Source: Microthyrium microscopicum (taxonomy: Eukaryota). Taken from it: a DNA stretch of 64,000 nt. The position numbers were made by a program, and so were the translations under genes. The stretch is from positions 855,457 to 919,456 of the forward strand of contig MU004236.1 of NCBI GenBank assembly GCA_010405405.1. The letters run 5' to 3'. Shown here in pieces: positions 20,929 to 63,526 of the stretch (within the stretch, counting starts at the first letter, position 1; each line of letters opens with the position of its first letter). The notes under the pieces are model-generated. The model ran no database searches, was not told the origin of the DNA, and worked only from the letters and a program-made list of their open reading frames with translations.

Positions 20929-21312
20929 ATCTTCGGCTATTAGGCTAAGAAACTACCTACGTCTATCTACAAACATCAAAAACGTAAACGAGATCCTACT
21001 CGCCAAGGTTCGAAACGAAACACAAACTGAAATGTCCTTTTGTTCTGAAAACCTACTACGATCATCCTTATATTTCTCTCCCACACTCCCAGACATTCTA
21101 TCCAGCACTCCAGACGCAAGAAAGGGGCAACTCACAAACCGGCCTACCAGTATAATTCCCAATAGCTCTAATCGGAAAGATCCAGTAAAAAACCACCAAA
21201 AACAGCAAGTAAACCATCTAAGTATACACCTCTCAACCAATAACAACCCATCATTCGTCCATAGTCAAAATAATCGACCAAAAATATAGCTCGCAAGCTC
21301 TGAACCAAGCAG

Positions 21313-21509
21313 TCCCGGCCAGCTTGATCAGGTGCTCCTCAATTCCCATTGGCCCCCGTTCATAACCTGATCTGTTCCTGAACAAGGGGAGCAGGATCAA
21401 CTTGCAAGTTTGCACCCTGCGATCGGAGCCAGGGCGAACTCAAGGGCAGACCGCTCATTTGCTGGCTGGGGAGCAGAAAGGGGAGGTGTTCATATATATA
21501 TTATTTTTT
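21313..21509 (+). ncRNA. Candidate structured non-coding RNA, element 2 (four-way junction; family not identified)
   Basis: Closing stem 21313-23/21461-71 encloses stems 21326-33/21365-72, 21373-79/21387-93 and 21401-19/21430-44. The non-Watson-Crick pairs are G.U on the + strand. A T6 run follows at 21504-21509. Confidence 0.4.
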
Positions 21510-24500
21510 CTTGTTCTGCCCTGGTCTGGGTATACCCGTGTGTGGCGAGATAATTGATTGTGTTGTTGATGAGTTCTGCGATAATTGAGATAGCTTTGGT
21601 GGGATTTGTCCCCAGTGACGGCGATGGCTCCCATGAGCGCTAGGTTGGGAGCTGAGATGGTGGTGGATACTTTATGGTACGGGGCTATCCAGAGCAGGCA
21701 GAGTTTCAGGTTACTCAGAGGAGTAGTACTGTATATAGGTGTTACAGGAATAATAGAGCTTGACGGGCGCACGCTGTTATGTTGAACTCTCCCAATTGTT
21801 ATTGCGAGCAGATTGATAAGAGAGAGAGAGGTTTCGCGATAAACCTCAATTAGAAGGCAAAGATTAGGTTTGGTCTATTATTTATCATTGATCGTCTCCA
21901 CCCCAGAAGCACCCATCAGATCAACAAGAAGCTTTTCATCAAATCCCTTGGATAGCTCTCCAGTACCCCGGCCGTCGCCACGTCGTAACGTACCACATTG
22001 ACTTGTAGAAGCTCGAGCCCGTTCGCGATTTGCAAGAACTACGACTCGAAGAAAATGACCAGACCGATGGCATAATTATCATTATGCTTTGTTCTAACCT
22101 CTAAAAACTATTCAATACTCATAACAAGAGGGGCAATAGTGTTCAAAAAGAGGAGCGCTAAAGTCGGCCACCAACGATACTAGCGCAAGTGGAGTGGCCG
22201 TTGAACGCCATTCCAAATGGTTGGCTCCAAAACCCTCTTGTAATTGGTTCGTCGCAACTGTCAAATAAAGAGGCTAGAAACAGTAGGAACAGGGACCAGA
22301 CAGACATCCAACGAATGTGTTATGTGCCAGTCACAGCAACACACTCCTTTTGCGCATATATCTACAGTTGAACTTTACAGAGCAACTGGGTCAAAAGAGA
22401 GCAATCGACAGTGCAAGCAGAAAGCTTCTTCTCCACACCTGGGAATGATGAGACTGCGATCGGACCAGATTGATGTCCCATCGGTGTGAGAGTAGACTAG
22501 GCTCGTCTCGCGTTTAAGATCTTCGACCACATCCGGCACTCTGCCCCCCTGCGGCCCTGCCTGCCAGGGCGGCGCCAAATTCACCTCCCGGTCATGGCTT
22601 TGCGAATCCAAAAGCCTTGCAGATTTGTGTTCAACGTCCTAAATGCAGCAGCTTCTGATGGCCTTGTTGTAGTTGTAGGTAGCTCTTGTACCTTATAATA
22701 TAGGTGGGTATCTTTGAGTCCATAGCTTCCCAACGGTCCTGCCAACGGTCTTGCGAACGGTGGATAGCTCGGTCCCTGAGAAGTTAAGAAAAGGTAGCTT
22801 GGACAAGGGTTGGTCGTTAGCTTAGTATAAGACACGAAACATGATCACCCAGCAAAAGCTTGGAGAATTGTAGACTATTCTTCATGAGAGAAAACTCAAG
22901 TTAGTCAAATAGTTTGAGCTCTGCCTGTCTGCTTGTGTGAGGCTACTAGCCGAATTGGCAGAATCCCCCCCTTCTTGTACAACGAGAAATATCTGCAGGT
23001 GGAGACTTTTCTTCACCGATGGCTTGTCTGTGCCTCTCCAAGTCTGGGCATTTTGGGTACGCTTTCAAAGTGTCGGCCCCAAAAGCACAGGTCCTAGCAT
23101 CTGGGGTACTGTAGGTACTGTTGGAAAAATTCAAAAACTCTCTGTGTGTAAAAAGACTTTTTGCGGCTCTTTCGCTTCACTTGATGATTCAGTAGGTAGG
23201 TATTATTTTGGACAGGTCAGACGCTCATGGCTAATAGCGTCAGGCGGCGGGATGTTTAAGTTGGGGCGGCGATTATGCTGGTCTGTCATTGGATTGTTGG
23301 ATATGTTCAAGTACTTAAAAGGCAACGAATCCAGCGGGGATTTGTCGCCTCGCGCGCGCAGATAGGGTGTGCTCACTGCTGTTGGGACTTGCGTACTCTG
23401 AATTGGACCACGTAACAGCAAAGTCTTGTCTTGGTGCCACGAATGGCAACGGGTTTTGATCTTTTGGTCTAGCAGTATGATATAGCAAATCCAGGCACAT
23501 TGTATGAATATAACTAATCTATATTTTGTTCATCGAGCAATGAAAATTGATGTAATCCATACCCCAAGCACATGGGGATGGTGTCTCGTGCTTGGTGTTG
23601 GAGGAAAGGGTGGCAAGACTGGCAAGTTGGAGCTGGCTAAAAAGCCATGACTTCTAGATGTCGTGTAAACTCCTTTCTCTATTTGAACTGCTCAAAGTAG
23701 GTATATATATGTTTTTCATACAATAGACCAAGCTCATCATATTTGTCTTGCGATATGACCGGTGTTGTTGTCGAATACGGAGTAGTTGAAGCCAAGTGCG
23801 ATGGCTACCATCTGCTACGCTTGTGCGCTTTAAAACCGAGTGCTTTTTCTACTCCAATGTGTAGAAGCGTTGATTTTGCATTGAATGCACTGGATATTGT
23901 ATTAAAGCATCTTCTTTCTAAAGAGTGCGATGGGAGACAGCGTAGTTGATGGGAGAATATGGCAAGACAGTTGATGCAAGAGGCCTGTAAATTATTGGTG
24001 TAAGATCCCTACAGAGGGCAATCCCTGCTTGCCTGCCTGTTGCTGCTACTTAGCTAGTACTAGCTAGTCTTTGGGTGCTGGGTGCTGGGCTGCGACTGCC
24101 TCCCTCCTCTCCTCTCCTCTCAAACCGCAGGTCCTTAGTCCCACTCAGTCCACTCCTTCCTTTCCTCTCACACGCCTCTTGCTCTGCCCTCTATCTTACA
24201 ACTCCCAACTTCTTCAACTCTCTCTCATTTCTCCCTTTCTCCCTTTCTCCCTCCCAACCCACCGCCGTACAAACAACACAACATCACGACATCCCAGACG
24301 GTGCCCTATTTCCCCCAGCTATTCCAAGTCGCATACCTTCCTACCAAAATCTCTCGTCCTTTTTCTGCGCTACTCGCCAACGCCAACTTGTGCCCTACTC
24401 TACAACTGCCTGCCTTCGGAAACCGCCTCAACATCCACGACTTTTGATCCCTCCGTACGCCTCGCTACTTCTTGAAGAACTGGTCGACTTATCTTGTCAT

Positions 24501-24948
24501 CTTCCACTCTCGAGTATTACATTTGGACTGCGCGCTGGCTGTCCGCACGCGCTTCTTTGTTCCCAGTAGATTCGCAAGCCTGAAACATCTTTGCCTCGAG
24601 GAACCAGGCCCGTTTTTCTGTCAGCCAACCCACGTTGCGCGTGACTTCACACTACCAGTACCATATCTGCCATCTTTAAACTCGCCAATCTCTGTCCACA
24701 TCGCTGTCTACGAAATATTCTCGTCTTCGCTATAATTTACGGCTATTATACACGATCTCAACGGTCTAACGCCCAGACTTGAACAGACCCAGAAATCTCG
24801 CGGCTTCATTTGATGCCAGCAGAACAAACTTCGCTTCTGGGGTTCATCCATCGTGCCTTTGCTGCATGAGCTGGAGGACAACTAAAAGTCTCATTCGGTC
24901 TCCTGAGCCGGCCGCTATCAGGAATTAAGTGCACACGCCATAGACATC

Positions 24949-29307: not shown

Positions 29308-30517
29308 TGCCAATCCGCGAATTTTATGCCAGCCTTGAAAGGTCTTGATGGTATATTTGCATGTATATGACTAAGACGTTTGGAACGCAGGCCCGCTTGT
29401 CATCCATCTTTACGCATTCACGATCACTCCGGAACAACCAAAAAGTTGGGTACGAACTTTTTCACGGAGGCATTTTCTTTTACTGGCTCACAGGCGTTTC
29501 AGCAAGATTCGAGAGCAACTCGAAAAATCATACGACATCGGCATTTTCTATTGCCCAGGAATTCTTTTCAATTATTTTTTCAAACGATGAACTGCATGCT
29601 GTTTATGTAAAGCCTAGGACTCTCTACGATGCCCTTGGGCTACTTTTTCTTCACTTTATATTCTGCATTAGTCTTGGCCGGCGGTTGAATTTGTCTGTTT
29701 GTTTTTTCCTCTTTGACATATTGCTGGTTCATGTTTAGGCTTTGTGCTCTTTCACGGATGGATGCTTGGTTTCTCGATCGATAATACCCTTTTCTCATAG
29801 TGTTTGGTCAAGGGAGGAAAACTATTGTATTTATGGTTATGGGACGTTTTGAGCATGGAAAGAGAAACTACATTGGGATGAGGATTTGTAACTGTATGTC
29901 GTGTGGGATTTTGAAGCTTTTGTCTGAACATAAAAGAAATGAATCGACTACCGTTCTTCTCTTTAAATGATTCTTTGCTTTCAGTGAAACTCACTGCTGT
30001 AAGATTTCCATCGACTAATCTTCAAAAACTATATATATCTTATCATTTGAGTTACCACCCGATCTAATCTAGCTAGGCTCGCTCACCTGTATATTATGCA
30101 CAGACCCCCGCCACTTTCACCCGTGGTCGCAACATCCTCAAAGTCTGTTCACTTCGCAACCACCGCCAATAATTTCCAACACTTTATACTTTGTCGCCAA
30201 TACATCCTTCAATCTACCAGCTTCACCTTACGCTGTTACGAACTCCGGCTACAACCGTGGCGTCCTCGGCCTTGTCTTACATAGGCCAAACATTTGGCTA
30301 CAAAACCACACCGCAAAAGCCAGAAAGCTGGTGGGCCCAAGTCGAATTACTTGCCCATCGGTTATCTGCTTCGCTTCCTTTTCAGCGGCCTGTTCAACCC
30401 GAGAGTACTTTGGTCGACAAGGCTAAAAACCTTCTCACCGAATTAGACTCTTCACCAGGCGTATCCTCTACTATCTCGACGCTGATCCTCACCCTTCTCG
30501 TGGGTCTCACTATCTTC

Positions 30518-31450
30518 ATGTCCTGGTCATCTCGCTTCGGCGCCTGGGGATCTAAAATCAGTCCATTCGGCCGACCCTCACCAAATAGTGGGGACGCACA
30601 AGTCACAGATCAAGATTTTAGCTACATAACGACAGATGACATTAAACGCTCGGAACAGGAGGCCAAGGCTACACGACCGCCCCGCGATACAGATGCTCTC
30701 TGCCTAAAACACAAGCGCATCAGCTATCCAGTTCACTTTCCAGCATACAGCATCGACGATGGCGAACTCACGATCGGCAAGATACGCGAAGCTGCAGCGC
30801 GTCGAGTAGAGCTGCCCGTATCCGAGGCAAGCCGCATAAAACTTTTCTACAAGGGCAAAAATCTCAAAGAAGATTCGAGAACGGCCAAGGAAGAGGGAAT
30901 GGTCAGCGAGTCTCAACCGGAGATTCTTCTCGTGCTTGGCGACAAGATTACACAGCCTGAGAGTGAATCGGATGAGGAAGAAGAGGAGGCCACTGCTGGA
31001 GGCAAGAAGAAGAGAAAGTCACGTAAGCGGAAAAAGAAGTCTCGTACTTCTGGCACCGCGACTCCAGAGGCATCGAATACTTCATCGCGCTCTACGCCGC
31101 TTCCTGATGCTACGTTTGCAGCTTACGCAGCACCACCACCACGGCCAACTGCCGCACCTGCTGCGCCAAAAGCTGCTTCAAGTCCTATCGAGAAGATCGA
31201 TGCACTTGCGTCTACTTTTCACACTAGCTTTGTGCCAAATTGCATCAAGTTTCTATCGAGTCCTCCGGAAGACGCCTCGAAGCGCGATTTCGATCACAAG
31301 CGGCTTACCGAGACCATTCTTGCCCAGATACTGCTGAAGCTCGATGCGGTAGAGACGGAAGGTGACATGGATGCCAGAACACGGCGCAAAGAATTGGTGA
31401 AGGAAGTTCAGGGAATGCTGAACCAACTGGACGAAGTAATGAAGAAGTAG
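30518..31450 (+). CDS. BAG-domain Hsp70 nucleotide-exchange factor with ubiquitin-like domain; probable GUG-initiated longer isoform from 30257
   Basis: UBL region (IKLFYKGKNLK), acidic and basic tracts, and a C-terminal BAG domain (HKRLTETILAQILLKLDAVETEGD..ARTRRKELVKEVQ..LNQLD). The first ATG is at 30518 (MSWSSRF), but the frame is open from 30173. Confidence 0.9.
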   Translation: MSWSSRFGAWGSKISPFGRPSPNSGDAQVTDQDFSYITTDDIKRSEQEAKATRPPRDTDALCLKHKRISYPVHFPAYSIDDGELTIGKIREAAARRVELPVSEASRIKLFYKGKNLKEDSRTAKEEGMVSESQPEILLVLGDKITQPESESDEEEEEATAGGKKKRKSRKRKKKSRTSGTATPEASNTSSRSTPLPDATFAAYAAPPPRPTAAPAAPKAASSPIEKIDALASTFHTSFVPNCIKFLSSPPEDASKRDFDHKRLTETILAQILLKLDAVETEGDMDARTRRKELVKEVQGMLNQLDEVMKK

Positions 31451-31719
31451 ACTACATCAGCGACGGCGCAGGTGTTACTGGATATAGACTGGCTGGCTGA
31501 GTTATTTGAATCGATTATGTGATCGTATCCGCTTCATGTTCTAAATTACCCCATGTTATGATTAACGATCCATGTGTTACGTAGGCTTTCAAATTGGATA
31601 TCATTTGCATCGTAACTTCATAAATCTCATCTACATAAGACATAACTTCATACCACCGCGTGATCTACCGCCCATGGACACCGCTCGAATCATCTCCCGG
31701 CCCATCTCATCCCATCCTT

Positions 31720-32577
31720 CTACTCCGCCTCACACTGCACCGTAACCGAACACCGTAAATCAATCTCCTCCGGCTCAAAATTCAACTTCTCCTCCCCTCC
31801 TGCCGGTCTCGTCGACCCAAATAAACTCGCCTGCCCAAACGCTCCACCGCCAGCACCTACACTCCGCATCCCCGTCCCACCACCACTATTGCCAAACAAT
31901 CCTCCTCCTCCACCACTATTGCCAAACAATCCTCCTCCACCACCACCACCACCACCAAACCCTCCCCCTCCGCCAAACAAACTCGCCGATCCACTGCCAC
32001 TCATGCTCACCACACGCACATCCCGCTTCCCCACAGCCGCCGCATAGTCCCGCGCTTGCGCCAGCGCATCCTGCACCGCGAGCGTGCGACTCTGACTCGC
32101 GAGTCGAGTTTTCGTCGCGTCAGAAAGTTGCCAACTAACACTCCGTATCGTAACATGCGGTAATGTCGCCAGGTCCGAAAGAACCGTAGCCAATTTCGCA
32201 AAGTCGCGAAATCGTATATCGATGTTTGTACTCGCTGTATATTGTGCGACTTTATGATGTTCTGTTTGCCCTCCAGTCTGGTTTGCCGTGGGCGTCGTGG
32301 GGACGTATATGAAATATGAGCCTGTTGCGAGTGTGCTCATGCTCCATTTTGTGATTGCTGGTTCGGGGGCGGTTGGGTTGGCGGGGTTGGCGGCTTCGGT
32401 GGTGGGTTGGGAGAGACTGCGGAGTCCGGTTTGGATTTTGTTGGTGGTGTTTGTTACGGCGGCGATTGTTTTGGATTGGGTGGGGCCGGAGGTTGAGACT
32501 GTGACGGTTACGTGGGCGCGTTCGGCGCGGTGGGTTTGTGTTGATGTGCCGGTTACGTTTATTGTTATGGGTGGCAT
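31720..32577 (-). CDS. SIMPL / DUF541 domain protein with a Gly/Phe-Gly low-complexity insertion
   Basis: MPPITINVTGTS..AERAHVTV, YTASTNIDIRFRDF, VSWQLSD, AVQDALAQARDYAAAVG and terminal FEPEEIDLRCSVTVQCEAE match the SIMPL layout. ATG at 32577 has ACAATG context. Intronless. Confidence 0.85.
   Translation of the reverse strand: MPPITINVTGTSTQTHRAERAHVTVTVSTSGPTQSKTIAAVTNTTNKIQTGLRSLSQPTTEAANPANPTAPEPAITKWSMSTLATGSYFIYVPTTPTANQTGGQTEHHKVAQYTASTNIDIRFRDFAKLATVLSDLATLPHVTIRSVSWQLSDATKTRLASQSRTLAVQDALAQARDYAAAVGKRDVRVVSMSGSGSASLFGGGGGFGGGGGGGGGLFGNSGGGGGLFGNSGGGTGMRSVGAGGGAFGQASLFGSTRPAGGEEKLNFEPEEIDLRCSVTVQCEAE
31880..31939 (-). repeat. 30-bp tandem duplication encoding GGGLFGNSGG
   Basis: CCACCACTATTGCCAAACAATCCTCCTCC(T/A) occurs twice in tandem on the + strand. 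Confidence 0.9.
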
Positions 32578-33089
32578 TGTGGTCGCGAGGGGGGGAATCC
32601 TTGGGCGCGGAGGGTGGTGGGAGCGAGCGGAGGGGAGTGGTGATAGAGTAGGTTTGAAAGGGGAGTTGATGCTGAAGTTGAGGTTGAATGTCGCGAGAGA
32701 CAAATCGGGATTGGTGTCGATCACGGAAGATGCCGACTACATCTCCGACAGCCGGTGACTTTCTGCATCAATATCTTTTCCTAATTGCGAAACTTTGCTG
32801 GTTTTCGACAAGATATCCATGAGGTTTAACGAGTACTTTAAAATCATGGTATATCGTACAAAATGCAGCCTGATATGGATCCAGGGAGATGCCCACCAAC
32901 CACACTCGCTGCTGCGGTCACGCATCCAATTGGGCCATATCAGATACAATATTGTGGCTTAGACCCCAGTCAACAGAGATGCATACAACAGCCGGCCTCA
33001 AATTGATACACCATTCATCTTCATGCCTTCTCACGGTGTTCAAGGAAGCTCACGACGTGTCGTGACAAACACAAAACTCGGCGACGAAC

Positions 33090-36000
33090 ATGTCCACCGC
33101 TGTCGCGAATGCTGCCCGGCTGAAGCCTGAGCTACGTCTTGCTCAGGCTGTGTCTAGATTTGAAGCAGACCTATCTCGAGAGCAGAAAGACGCACTGCGA
33201 TCCCAGAGGTCTCAGTTACAAGCTTCGAGTCCGGATGCGAGCGATGTCATAAGACTGACTTCGGAGATTGATAAGACGTCTGGCATAGTTGCTGGTAGAC
33301 GATGCATTGGTCCACGACTGACGAACTTCATTCAAGCCGTTCAACAGTTCGCTTCCCTTGGAGACGTCATTATTGGAGGAAGTCAAAATATCATCGCTTG
33401 TGGGGTTTGGATGCTAGTGCGAACGTCTCTACTCGTATGTGTTCGCTTGACTACCTTATTCGGAATTTGCTACTAACGCTATAAAGTCAATCGCCACTTA
33501 TTCATCGTATATGGACAAGCTCTCGACTATTTTCATGGACCTTGGCCGCTCTGCTCCACGCCATCAGGCAATGGCTTTGCTATATCCACAATCGAAACGG
33601 TTACAGGCAGATCTTACGGAGTACTTTGTTGTTGTCGTCGACTTCTGCCATCAAATATGGAAGTTTTCTCAGAAATCCTCCATAAACAAATTTGTATCGG
33701 CTTTGGGAGATTCAGATCTAAAAACTTATCAATCCAAATTAGAAAGTTGGGCAAAAAGCATCAAAGAGGAGATTCAGTTTCTTATGGCTCAGCAGAGCCT
33801 CGAAAATGGTCGCAATATCAATGGCATCACATCACTTTTTGCCAAGGGCCTCAGTTTTACTTCTCATCAGAGAGACCTACAAATCAAGCTGAGGGTTCTC
33901 GATCTCTGCTCTACATACGATCATCAAACGGCCTGGAAGCAGATTAGAGAACTCGGACGCTGCTCGAACTTTGCTCAAAGCGCCGATTATCAAGAATGGA
34001 GAGGCGGCTCGAGATCCTCAACATTAATATATAGAGGCAAACTGGGATCTGGGAAGTCCGTTCTTCTAGCCAATATTGTGGAAGATGTCATTACGCACGA
34101 CAGCAACCCACAAAGAACTAAGCCTTTGGCATACTTCTTCTGCAAACATGACTTACCGGAAAGCTTGCAAGCTCGAACTATATTCGGATCTCTCGCTCGA
34201 CAGCTACTTGATTTCGCTTTGAATGACACCTTCCTAAAACCTTTACCAGAAGAAACCGCACTTAGTCTTGATATTGAAGATACATTGGAACTTCTGCGAC
34301 GTGCGTATGCACAAACTGGAGCAGCATACATTGTGCTCGATGGGCTTGATGAATGTGATTTCACTACAGGTGAAAAGATCATTCAGCAATTGCAGACGCT
34401 GCAGAAATGCATTAACCTTCATCTCTGTCTTTCATTCCGCCTGGATCCTGCCGAAAATTCAAGTTTGAATGTAAAAGATCTTACTGCTGTCAAGAGCATC
34501 TCCATGCCAGACAACAACCCCGACATCGAGGCGTACATCGACGGACAATTGGACCACCTTGTTACCTCTGAAAAGCTTCAACTACAGGATCCTCTCCTTA
34601 TTCTAGAAATACAAAAAAAGCTCATGGAGCGCTCACAAGGCATGTTTCTGTGGGTGGCCCTGCAACTTCAGTCAATTTGCACAATGGAAGGCGACAACAA
34701 TATCCGCCACGCACTGGAAAATCTGCCCAAAGACCTCCCGGAGACCTTCAATCGTATATTGAACAGACACAGGAAGGATACCAAAGCTTTTCAAAGACGA
34801 ATTCTGGAACTTGTTGTAGTCGCATTCCGACCCTTGACTACCGAGGAACTACGAGAGGCTCTTAGTGTAATAATTGGTGATGTCGTCTGGAAACCTTCAA
34901 ATCTATTACGCAATATCATCTCCACTTTGGCCAGCTTCGGTGGTCTGATATTGGTTGACGAAGAAGAGAAGACTGTGCGTCTCGTACACCATAGCTTCAA
35001 ACAATATCTCATCGATCTATTTCAAAACAAAGAGGAGGGAAGGTTCTCTTTGGACGTTGCACATGGCCACATGCTTGACACAATCGCGACTTATCTTAGC
35101 TATAACGTTTTCGAAACTCGAGTGTCCACGGCTGTGGTTCCGCGCATGAACATAGGCTCCGCACCAGCACAAATTGTCCGAGAAACACTGGATTCAAGTG
35201 TGGGCCAGAAAATAGCACTCAAGCTATTACGGTTGCGGAAATCGCCTGGTTTTGATATCAGCAAGACTCTTGCGGAAGCAGGTAGTCTCTACGGCACGCC
35301 AGCGATAGATCGCTTTCACTTCCATGACTACGCAAAGACGTTTTACATGCAGCATATCCGTAGTGCCTCAAGTTATCAATTAGCATATCCTAAATTATTA
35401 GCAAAGTTGCTAACTGATGAGGACTGGATCAGCATAAAGAAAACACTTGATGCTCCGTCTTCGAAACCCCTTCTTAAACACCTCGACATAGAAGCACTCC
35501 TACGTGACGCCGCAGAGAAAGGCAAATTGGTTATTTTTGCACTGCTTCTTGAGACAACCACATACTTCCCCGAACTCTCAAGGCTACTTTCTTGGGCCGC
35601 TGACGGCGGGCGGGAAGGCATTGTCCGGCTGCTCCTACTGAAAATGCACGTTAAGGAAAGTGATTTTCGAATTCCATTCTTCAGTGCTATGATGAAAGGT
35701 CGCAAATCCATGGCCGAGCTATTTCTTAACATTGGCTGGTTTTGGAGGGACGAGGTTTGGCTAGCCTTTTCCGAAGAGAAGTATCGAATACTACTCTCAT
35801 TAGTTGTCGAAAATGGACACGAAGCCATGGTATGGCTACTTCAGAGGAAGGACCTATTCGAGAACAACCCGGATGGATCAGGCTTCCTAGCTGTGGAGCC
35901 ATTATCAGCCGTGGCGAGACGTAGGCCAGGAGCTGTGGTTGAGCTGCTTGTCGAGATAGATATGGTCAACCATGAGCTGGGACGCAATGCTGGTGATACG

Positions 36001-62782: not shown

Positions 62783-63526
62783 TTAATTGCTGGCAGAATG
62801 TTAGTCACGATCATAGCACATCAATATCAAGGGGCCAACTTACAGCAATCCAAGAGTCAAATCACCATGGATCTTCGCCTTCAACTGAACTTCGATGTCA
62901 AGGTTCAACTCCAGTCTCAAGCGCAATTGTTCTTTGCCTTCATCCCCACCACCCTCCTCCTTCTTTCCCCCACCAGTCAACCCACCCAACGCCTGTCCAG
63001 CAGTATTCCCCACCTGATTAACCGCATTGCCTGCCGTATTCTGCACCATATCCGTCGCCCCACTCACCGCCTCTCCACCCGGCAAGCCCTCCGCAATCCC
63101 ATCCAACGGCCCACCGCCACTCTTCTCCTGCGTCTGCGTCTGGTTCCCATTCCGCTGTCTCTGGCGCTGCCTATTGCGTCGTCCGCCGCCCACGGCGCTG
63201 ACTTCAGAGGCTGCAACACTCTCTGTGTCTGACGCATCGACGGCACCGCCTCGGCGGCCACGCCCGCGTGATTGGCGGCGGCGCGACTGGGTGCGTGATT
63301 TTGCGGGCTCGGAGGGCGCGGCGGATTCTTCGGCGGCGTCCTCGTCGGGCTCGGGGGTGGCGTCGGGGGTGGGTTGTTGTTGGGCTTCTGGTTTTTTACC
63401 GCCGAGTTTCTTTGGGGTGCGCTTCTCGGTTTTCTTGGAGGCGGATGCGCCGATGCCGCCTTGGGCTTGGGCTTGGCCTTGTCCTTCGGCTCCGAGACTG
63501 GCTTGGGCTTCTTCTGTGTCGGCCAT
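62783..63526 (-). CDS. Conserved fungal low-complexity protein with a C-terminal LRLELNLDIEVQLKAKIHGDLTLGLL motif
   Basis: ORF 62840-63526 with ACAATGG start context and a hydrophilic disordered body. Probable terminal intron 62790-62843 (GTAAGT..ACTAAC..CAG) and a 7-nt final coding segment. Confidence 0.8.

Follow-up and report, generated by a model that had tools for sequence, protein, structure and literature searches.

A probable near-cognate start codon and a predicted membrane anchor upstream of the annotated start of a BAG co-chaperone gene in Microthyrium microscopicum and related fungi

Results

The BAG gene and its upstream open frame

We analyzed a 64,000-nucleotide (nt) stretch of contig MU004236.1 of Microthyrium microscopicum (GCA_010405405.1, positions 855,457 to 919,456 of the forward strand), hereafter the window, and in it a BAG-domain gene on the + strand whose translation probably begins not only at the annotated AUG but also upstream of it. 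Taken from a GUG at 30257 to its stop codon (30257-31450), the gene is predicted to encode a BAG-1-type Hsp70 nucleotide-exchange co-chaperone with a ubiquitin-like and a BAG domain. The BAG reading frame (30173..31450) opens after an in-frame TAA at 30170..30172, which closes it upstream, and ends with the stop codon at 31448..31450. The first AUG of the mRNA region lies at 30518..30520 and begins the annotated soluble form of 310 amino acids (MSWSSRFG...). The nearest ATG upstream of it (30096..30098) is out of frame, +1 relative to the BAG frame, and between the two, from 30099 to 30517 (419 nt), no ATG occurs in any frame of the + strand. The initial annotation of this DNA had proposed that an in-frame GTG at 30257-30259 heads an 87-codon N-terminal extension (30257..30517), and its description of the sequence held throughout: the frame is open from 30173 to the ATG at 30518, the ATG-free run is close to the 420 nt given, and the extension is ATG-free in every frame. 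The context of the GTG (30251..30260; acaaccGTGgcg) is near-ideal, with A at -3 and G at +4, whereas that of the ATG at 30518 (atcttcATGtcc) is weak, with T at both positions. Initiation at the GUG would give a product of 397 residues, compared to 310 from the AUG.

The BAG domain (31196..31435) is a three-helix bundle supported by Pfam PF02179 (E 2.1e-22; 79.8 bits against a Pfam cut-off of 23.4) and by an AlphaFold2 model with helices over residues 310-396 at a predicted local distance difference test (pLDDT) score of ~97. Assignment of the ubiquitin-like domain (30689..30937) draws on a Pfam match below the cut-off (17.1 vs. 25.4 bits, E 0.0047) and on the AlphaFold2 strand/helix pattern of residues 145-227 (block pLDDT 83-95); several homologues carry a precomputed PF00240. 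A Pfam search with the extension alone matched no family. The extension ends in VSSTISTLILTLLVGLTIF, with the Met directly after it, and the hydrophobic helix that had been read at this point was confirmed: the best 19-residue segment comprises residues 69-87 (Kyte-Doolittle mean 2.01), AlphaFold2 places a helix at residues 70-91, and together they define a predicted transmembrane helix at 30461..30529. The AlphaFold2 model of the long form, built from a 32-sequence alignment (mean pLDDT 73.7; predicted template modelling score [pTM] 0.35), has four helices in the extension, at residues 3-12, 25-38, 52-64, and 70-91, the last with block pLDDT 81-83 and extending 3 residues beyond the AUG-encoded Met. 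The AUG-started form is entirely without the hydrophobic helix.

Within the window, chance alone is a moderately unlikely source of these features. Among mononucleotide shuffles (n = 5000), 1.1% were free of ATG over 419 nt and 0.9% kept 115 codons open, and the 419-nt run ranks only fourth-longest among ATG-free stretches of the window's + strand, after those at 23974-24813 (839 nt), 62895-63445 (550 nt), and 21032-21569 (537 nt). Because the within-window improbability is only moderate, the weight of the case rests on the comparative data.

A single 1597-nt contig of run X1 covers 30175..31771 (+) colinearly, uninterrupted by gaps or joints and free of loose ends and mismatched letters. X1 is the sole listed run, and we take it as RNA because another of its contigs, of 6548 nt, skips a 52-nt GT..AG intron (33435-33486; joint 33434/33487) in the next downstream gene. 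The GTG at 30257 lies 82 nt inside the end of the contig, within the transcript body, and the colinear contig contains no spliced-in exon between the closing TAA and the AUG. The initial annotation had named a transcription start downstream of 30257, or a spliced upstream exon supplying an in-frame ATG, as findings that would speak against it; RNA-like cover instead begins upstream of the GTG and continues without a joint. No X1 cover was seen over 29904-30174 (records that end at 29903 or start at 30175 explain the full depth of their bins), an interval that we do not use as evidence of a transcription start, given that contigs cannot show an RNA end. Two TATA-like runs (ctatatatatc and gtatattatg) occur at 30031-30098, 80-145 nt before the first base of the RNA contig, and the ATG at 30096 falls inside the second.

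Conservation of the proposed start codon

A scan of metagenome contigs yielded 79 related loci, 74 of which had a D[FY]SYIT anchor motif; the other five (L032, L064, L068, L072, and L079) were left out before counting. Together with the window, these gave 75 records in 57 groups of distinct upstream sequence. An alignable [V/L]-A-x motif heads a conserved extension in 38 groups, which are the basis of all start-codon counts and are referred to below as the 38 loci. The remainder comprised three groups with an ATG at the motif position or a few codons downstream (L019, L020, L073), five from a clade with a shorter extension (L004, L030, L033, L038, L049), seven without an extension that begin at the conserved Met (L037, L044/47, L045, L048, L056, L075/76, L077), and four interrupted by a contig end or an intron-like break (L014, L023, L043/51, L069). 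Clustering at 40% extension identity reduced the 38 groups to 12 clusters.

At the head of the aligned extensions, 28 of the 38 loci have GTG and the other 10 have CTG. An A occupies position -3 in 36 loci, with G in the remaining 2; +4 is invariably G, and the second codon is GCT (23/38) or GCG (15/38). By cluster, eight are GTG-only, three CTG-only, and one mixed (7 GTG, 2 CTG). Judged from these alignments, the start codon alternates between two near-cognates and is never replaced by a synonymous codon that is not near-cognate. Conserved valines elsewhere in the same genes are coded differently: three control columns used GTC 22/GTG 10/GTT 4/GTA 2, GTG 11/GTT 4/GTA 2/GTC 1, and GTC 16/GTG 8/GTT 8/GTA 1, and a conserved leucine column used six different codons. 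In the unfiltered motif list, GTC, GTA, and CTC appeared only at non-aligned matches and nothing other than a near-cognate stood at the aligned column, with alignment judged by eye. The main AUG shows no such constraint of context (-3: A 15/T 9/C 7/G 7; +4 G in 1/38). Sequence 5′ of the start codon is unrelated between clades, such that the codon forms the 5′ edge of conservation. A role of the conserved codon as a splice donor or acceptor was ruled out, as its flanking bases differ between clades and the window contig is colinear. One protein record (P0003, MASS...) initially suggested an ATG at the start column and was dropped, the same motif being printed with M in two sources and with V in a third.

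Several further observations concern the neighborhood of this codon. In the shorter-extension clade, a CTG or GTG flanked by A at -3 and by G at +4 stands 37 codons ahead of the Met in L004, L030, L033, and L038, and L038 has in-frame stops further upstream of it; the start seems to have moved to this position. The window itself has, 36 codons ahead of the Met, a TTG at 30410-30412 (agtactTTGgtc) with the same flanking bases at -3 and +4, which could be a minor second start and is unconserved in the closest relatives. The Leotiomycete clade has a hairpin (GTGGCATC...GGTGCCAC; L018, L025, L031, L034, L041, L054, and partly L021 and L022) at +17 to +40 of the start codon. Its onset lies ~15 nt past the start codon, a spacing reminiscent of Kozak's downstream-hairpin effect, and its 5′ arm is another in-frame GTG-GCA, flanked at both -3 and +4 by G. 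Variation in it amounts to a single C-to-U change in L031 that retains a G-U pair, no compensatory change was seen, and the other clades are without the hairpin. For 20 loci, folding of the 75 nt that begin with the start codon revealed no general RNA structure of the kind that might boost initiation, with z-scores of -1.37 to +0.76 and none below -2.

Coding constraint, ATG depletion, and the hydrophobic segment

By the pattern of its substitutions, the extension is under purifying selection as protein in the BAG frame. The ratio of non-synonymous to synonymous change (pN/pS) across the extension was below 1 in 24/24 locus pairs and below 0.5 in 18/24, for pairs of 70-97% nucleotide identity, and third codon positions dominate the substitutions (e.g., 5/2/35 differences at the three positions). 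Upstream of the start codon, the frame is closed without an ATG in 31 of the 38 loci; in 12 loci an in-frame stop lies only 4-11 codons before the start codon, with no ATG between in 11 of them. In one locus (L018) the upstream frame is cut by the contig end.

ATGs are strongly depleted from the extensions. The 38 loci contain 3 ATGs in 9,274 nt of extension, with 35 loci wholly ATG-free, as compared to 102 in equal lengths of coding sequence just downstream, 66 in 8,628 nt upstream of the start codons, and 77 ± 8 (minimum 55) in shuffles. The three that occur (L061, L065, L070) are out of frame. A leader free of ATGs in every frame is a requirement if scanning ribosomes are to leak through to the next AUG, and making the long form alone would require no depletion. 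Five loci (L007, L012, L019, L020, L073) have an in-frame upstream ATG at or near the start column, with a pyrimidine at -3 and never G at +4; these weak contexts fit a start that is meant to leak. In the same five loci, the leader downstream of the upstream ATG stays nearly ATG-free. The Met itself would be usable as a start, because seven distinct loci without an extension begin at it.

A hydrophobic segment abuts or overlaps the Met in 38/38 extensions. Scored over its best 19 residues, the segment reaches a median Kyte-Doolittle mean of 1.74 across the loci, the lowest value being 1.35, where 1.6 is the customary threshold for a transmembrane segment. The mean net charge of the 15-residue flanks is -0.58 on the N-terminal side and +2.05 on the C-terminal side, and the positive-inside rule would place the C-terminal flank in the cytosol; membrane insertion and topology of the long form are predictions from these properties and from the model. 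Few basic and some acidic residues occur in the N-terminus of the extension, and on this reading of the sequence a mitochondrial presequence was rejected. Overall, the features that the initial annotation had expected to recur in relatives, namely an open frame, a hydrophobic helix, a near-cognate codon with its context, ATG depletion, and a synonymous bias, were all borne out, and no stop or frameshift interrupts the extension in any of the 38 orthologous loci.

Annotation and distribution

The database model of the window gene (P0001) is the 310-residue form starting at the AUG; the proposed long form is absent from the standard annotation here, as had been anticipated. Many Dothideomycete homologues extend further and align along the entire GTG-started query. 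Homologue searches used Dothideomycete and Leotiomycete queries, and our statements on distribution cover those two classes. A 'KVASS' locus as query retrieved Leotiomycetes, including Lachnellula, Rhynchosporium, Botrytis, Sclerotinia, and Pseudogymnoascus, and an 'ATVASS' locus retrieved Mycosphaerellales and other Dothideomycetes. NCBI models start at the Met in Glarea (298 amino acids), Cercospora beticola (309), Dothistroma (318), and Tothia (314), and they read through the motif from an unrelated upstream ATG in Botrytis elliptica, Ciborinia, Plenodomus lingam, Didymella, Hortaea, and Cercospora zeae-maydis. The KVAS motif region is present in the Botrytis elliptica, Ciborinia, and Sclerotinia models. 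Among 348 retrieved homologue records (P0001-P0348), the Met motif is present in 321 and absent from 27. Records starting at the Met number 58, and 147 are longer models, most of them from unrelated upstream ATGs, with 78 running through the motif. A further 116 begin exactly at the start motif, the first residue being printed as V or L in 42 and as M in 74, depending on the source; the motif-start records come from metagenome pipelines. Gene callers of the prokaryotic type, which allow GTG starts, seem to have landed on the probable true start by chance, and eukaryotic pipelines seem to miss it. Gene models for the fungal BAG family are inconsistent as they stand.

Downstream of the BAG gene lies a convergent neighbor (31720-32736, - strand) encoding a SIMPL/DUF541 protein (Pfam E 5.2e-29), the C-terminus of which contains a Gly-rich tandem repeat (about 31880-31960 in + coordinates). 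The X1 contig of the BAG gene, which runs to 31771, overlaps the 3′ end of this open reading frame by ~50 nt.

Discussion

In this study, we examined the region upstream of the annotated start of a fungal BAG gene and compared it among related loci. We consider it likely that this one gene, through a leaky GUG or CUG start, supplies both a membrane-anchored and a soluble Hsp70 exchange factor of the ubiquitin-like/BAG type, and we hold with somewhat greater assurance that the extension is translated from a near-cognate codon. The proposal of leaky non-AUG initiation was already part of the initial annotation, and the comparative tests support it. In the mechanism that we envisage, two start codons would be read on a single unspliced mRNA. 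Scanning ribosomes would meet the GUG at 30257 first and, given that it is a near-cognate codon in optimal context, a fraction of them would initiate there. The resulting protein of 397 residues would carry 87 additional residues, a series of short helices and, after them, one hydrophobic helix that would serve as a membrane anchor, with positive charge C-terminal of the anchor leaving the ubiquitin-like and BAG domains facing the cytosol or nucleoplasm. Those that scan past the GUG without initiating would encounter no AUG in any frame for 261 nt and would then start at the AUG at 30518, just past the anchor, to make the annotated soluble protein of 310 residues. We infer GUG initiation, the two isoforms, and a ratio between them from what was observed at these loci: the sequence features, their conservation, the coding constraint, and the unspliced RNA cover.

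Some of the data weigh against this proposal and should be kept in mind. The loci are related and represent ~12 lineages by clustering, such that the counts of 38 overstate their independence. The start column was found via the motif and a near-cognate filter, and GC at +4/+5 and part of the codon identity are built into the codon and context counts. The pN/pS ratio was 0.56-0.83 in 6/24 pairs, five of them being close pairs that differ at few sites and the sixth the most diverged pair (70% identity). An in-frame ATG lies upstream in the open frame in 6/38 loci, within 6 codons of the start in L007 and L012 and further upstream in L053, L057, L067, and L074. The predicted anchor has a short hydrophobic core in which Thr, Ser, and Ala are abundant, and in three loci its score reaches only 1.35-1.41. 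The closest relatives of the window (P0002, P0003, P0004; 53-56% identity) are represented by protein records only. Lastly, the RNA status of X1 is a guess from a single study, and its contigs are blind to transcript ends and rare isoforms.

Of the alternatives, the one that survives best concerns the fate of the helix rather than the start codon. The long form might exist with its helix serving not as an anchor, but as a buried helix of a soluble N-terminal domain or as an oligomerization element. The short and moderately hydrophobic core would agree with this, as would the pTM of only 0.35 for the AlphaFold2 model. Moreover, some 50-90 residues precede the helix, which is long for an N-terminal signal anchor. 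Yet no other property of the fast-evolving extension is as well conserved as the helix, and its flanks show the charge asymmetry described above (N side -0.58, C side +2.05). A member of the same family, Bag102 of Schizosaccharomyces pombe, has been shown by experiment to be a membrane protein, and its transmembrane domain is described as lying close to the N-terminus (PMC3907333). On balance, we regard a non-membrane role for the helix as unlikely.

A second alternative accepts the non-AUG start but holds that only the long form matters, with Met 30518 being an internal residue of a juxtamembrane motif (MSW-SRFG...SPFG). The Met does lie within a strongly conserved motif, the predicted helix continues through it, and the context of its codon is unconstrained, all of which would be expected of an internal residue. 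Three-frame depletion of ATG (3 in 9,274 nt), in contrast, would be anticipated only where ribosomes have to travel on to the next AUG. In addition, the seven distinct extension-less loci start at this Met, and upstream ATGs, where they are present, are always in weak context. We therefore think it improbable, and somewhat more so than a non-membrane helix, that the Met is an internal residue only and not a second start.

The remaining alternatives deny either that the region is translated or that it is translated from a near-cognate codon. If it were an untranslated 5′ leader containing an RNA or DNA regulatory element, only the 310-residue protein would be made. This would match the current annotation (P0001) and the published work on relatives, which in the passages concerned deals with ubiquitin-like and BAG domains only (PMC6467101, PMC6013550). 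The predominance of third-position substitutions and the low pN/pS in frame argue against it, as do the open frame and hydrophobic helix retained in 38/38 loci despite extension identity below 40% between the 12 clusters, and the lack of stable RNA structure in the 20 folded loci (z -1.37 to +0.76); a purely regulatory leader is accordingly very improbable. Translation of the extension from an ordinary ATG on a spliced upstream exon, as drawn in some database gene models, is the least credible of all: several NCBI models of relatives do reach the motif from far-upstream ATGs and an AAG that could be an intron end precedes the start in one clade, but the RNA-like contig runs colinearly from 30175 onward, free of joints and loose ends, while TAA 30170 closes the frame, acc, aaa, or atc precedes the start in most clades with A at -3 conserved rather than an AG acceptor, and the stretches that the long models add before the motif are mutually unrelated.

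If a near-cognate start is indeed used, a long membrane-anchored form has very likely been missed both by annotation and by the published work on this family, as far as our literature search shows. That search, supplements excepted, returned no report of fungal BAG proteins with an anchored isoform or with initiation at a codon other than AUG. In Botrytis cinerea, BcBAG1 is described as the unique BAG gene of the genome, encoding 298 amino acids; its over-expressed green fluorescent protein fusion was cytoplasmic, and phenotypes related to endoplasmic reticulum (ER) stress and the unfolded protein response (UPR) were reported (PMC6467101). BagA of Aspergillus nidulans likewise has ubiquitin-like and BAG domains (PMC6013550), and both proteins have the architecture predicted for the window gene. 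In L025, a metagenome locus of the Leotiomycete/Helotiales clade that includes Botrytis, the short form numbers 298 amino acids, the length given for BcBAG1. In the passages of these papers, the two experimental studies of the family from filamentous fungi, no transmembrane segment, isoform, or non-AUG start is mentioned, supplements apart (PMC6467101, PMC6013550), and a count of the terms transmembrane, isoform, and start codon gave 0 for each in the BagA main text (PMC6013550). Consequently, the localization, complementation, and ER-stress results for BcBAG1 and BagA may need re-reading.

Anchored BAG proteins are familiar from yeasts, and Snl1 of Saccharomyces cerevisiae has an N-terminal transmembrane anchor and, to our knowledge, no non-AUG start. 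It is described as a BAG-domain protein tied to the ER membrane and the nuclear pore (PMC6467101) and, unlike the predicted product of the window gene, is without a ubiquitin-like domain (PMC3907333). Fission yeast offers a further counterpart. Bag102 has a single transmembrane domain near its N-terminus, as the initial annotation had stated, and is found in microsomes and at the nuclear envelope with its domains facing the cytosol and nucleus, whereas Bag101 is cytosolic; both combine ubiquitin-like and BAG domains (PMC3907333). According to the same source, these are two genes with apparently ordinary starts, and the Bag102 anchor lies within the first 31 residues (PMC3907333); in the window gene and its relatives, one gene would supply both forms, and 50-90 residues precede the predicted anchor. 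It is tempting to speculate, though we consider it doubtful at this stage, that across many filamentous ascomycetes one gene does the job of these two, with the conserved start (at least in Dothideomycetes and Leotiomycetes) setting the proportions of a membrane (ER/nuclear envelope) and a soluble pool that shift under stress. Such a shift would be expected because near-cognate initiation depends on start-codon stringency and eIF2 status. If true, this would couple a translational stress response to chaperone-assisted degradation at the membrane, could account for the ER-stress and UPR phenotypes of the Botrytis mutant, and would be a convergent parallel to human BAG-1L.

Conserved near-cognate starts are known from other fungal genes. 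In Neurospora crassa cpc-1, extensions that begin at near-cognate codons (A at -3, G at +4) are reported to be conserved in Pezizomycotina (PMC5487733), and in Cryptococcus, AUU and ACG starts in strong context give dual-localized isoforms of aminoacyl-tRNA synthetases (PMC7049704). The BAG loci resemble both in having a conserved near-cognate codon in optimal context at the head of a conserved in-frame extension. They differ from cpc-1, whose leader contains upstream open reading frames and several near-cognate codons, and from the Cryptococcus synthetases, whose extensions are mitochondrial presequences rather than membrane anchors. The term 'BAG' occurs 0 times in the main texts of these two papers (PMC5487733, PMC7049704). 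The present loci would add to them a strongly supported and deeply conserved case of near-cognate initiation, in which the functional logic is the presence or absence of an anchor.

A likeness to human BAG-1 is also apparent, the BAG loci belonging to the same protein family as this classic example of CUG initiation. BAG-1L, the longest human BAG-1 isoform, is described as CUG-started (PMC4242288), in agreement with what the initial annotation had stated of it. As is proposed for the fungal loci, the protein is of the ubiquitin-like and BAG family, a non-AUG codon upstream of AUG starts on one mRNA gives the longest isoform, and the extension alters localization (PMC4242288). The human extension holds a nuclear localization signal, however, and not a hydrophobic anchor. 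We regard the human and fungal non-AUG extensions as probably independent inventions within one co-chaperone family.

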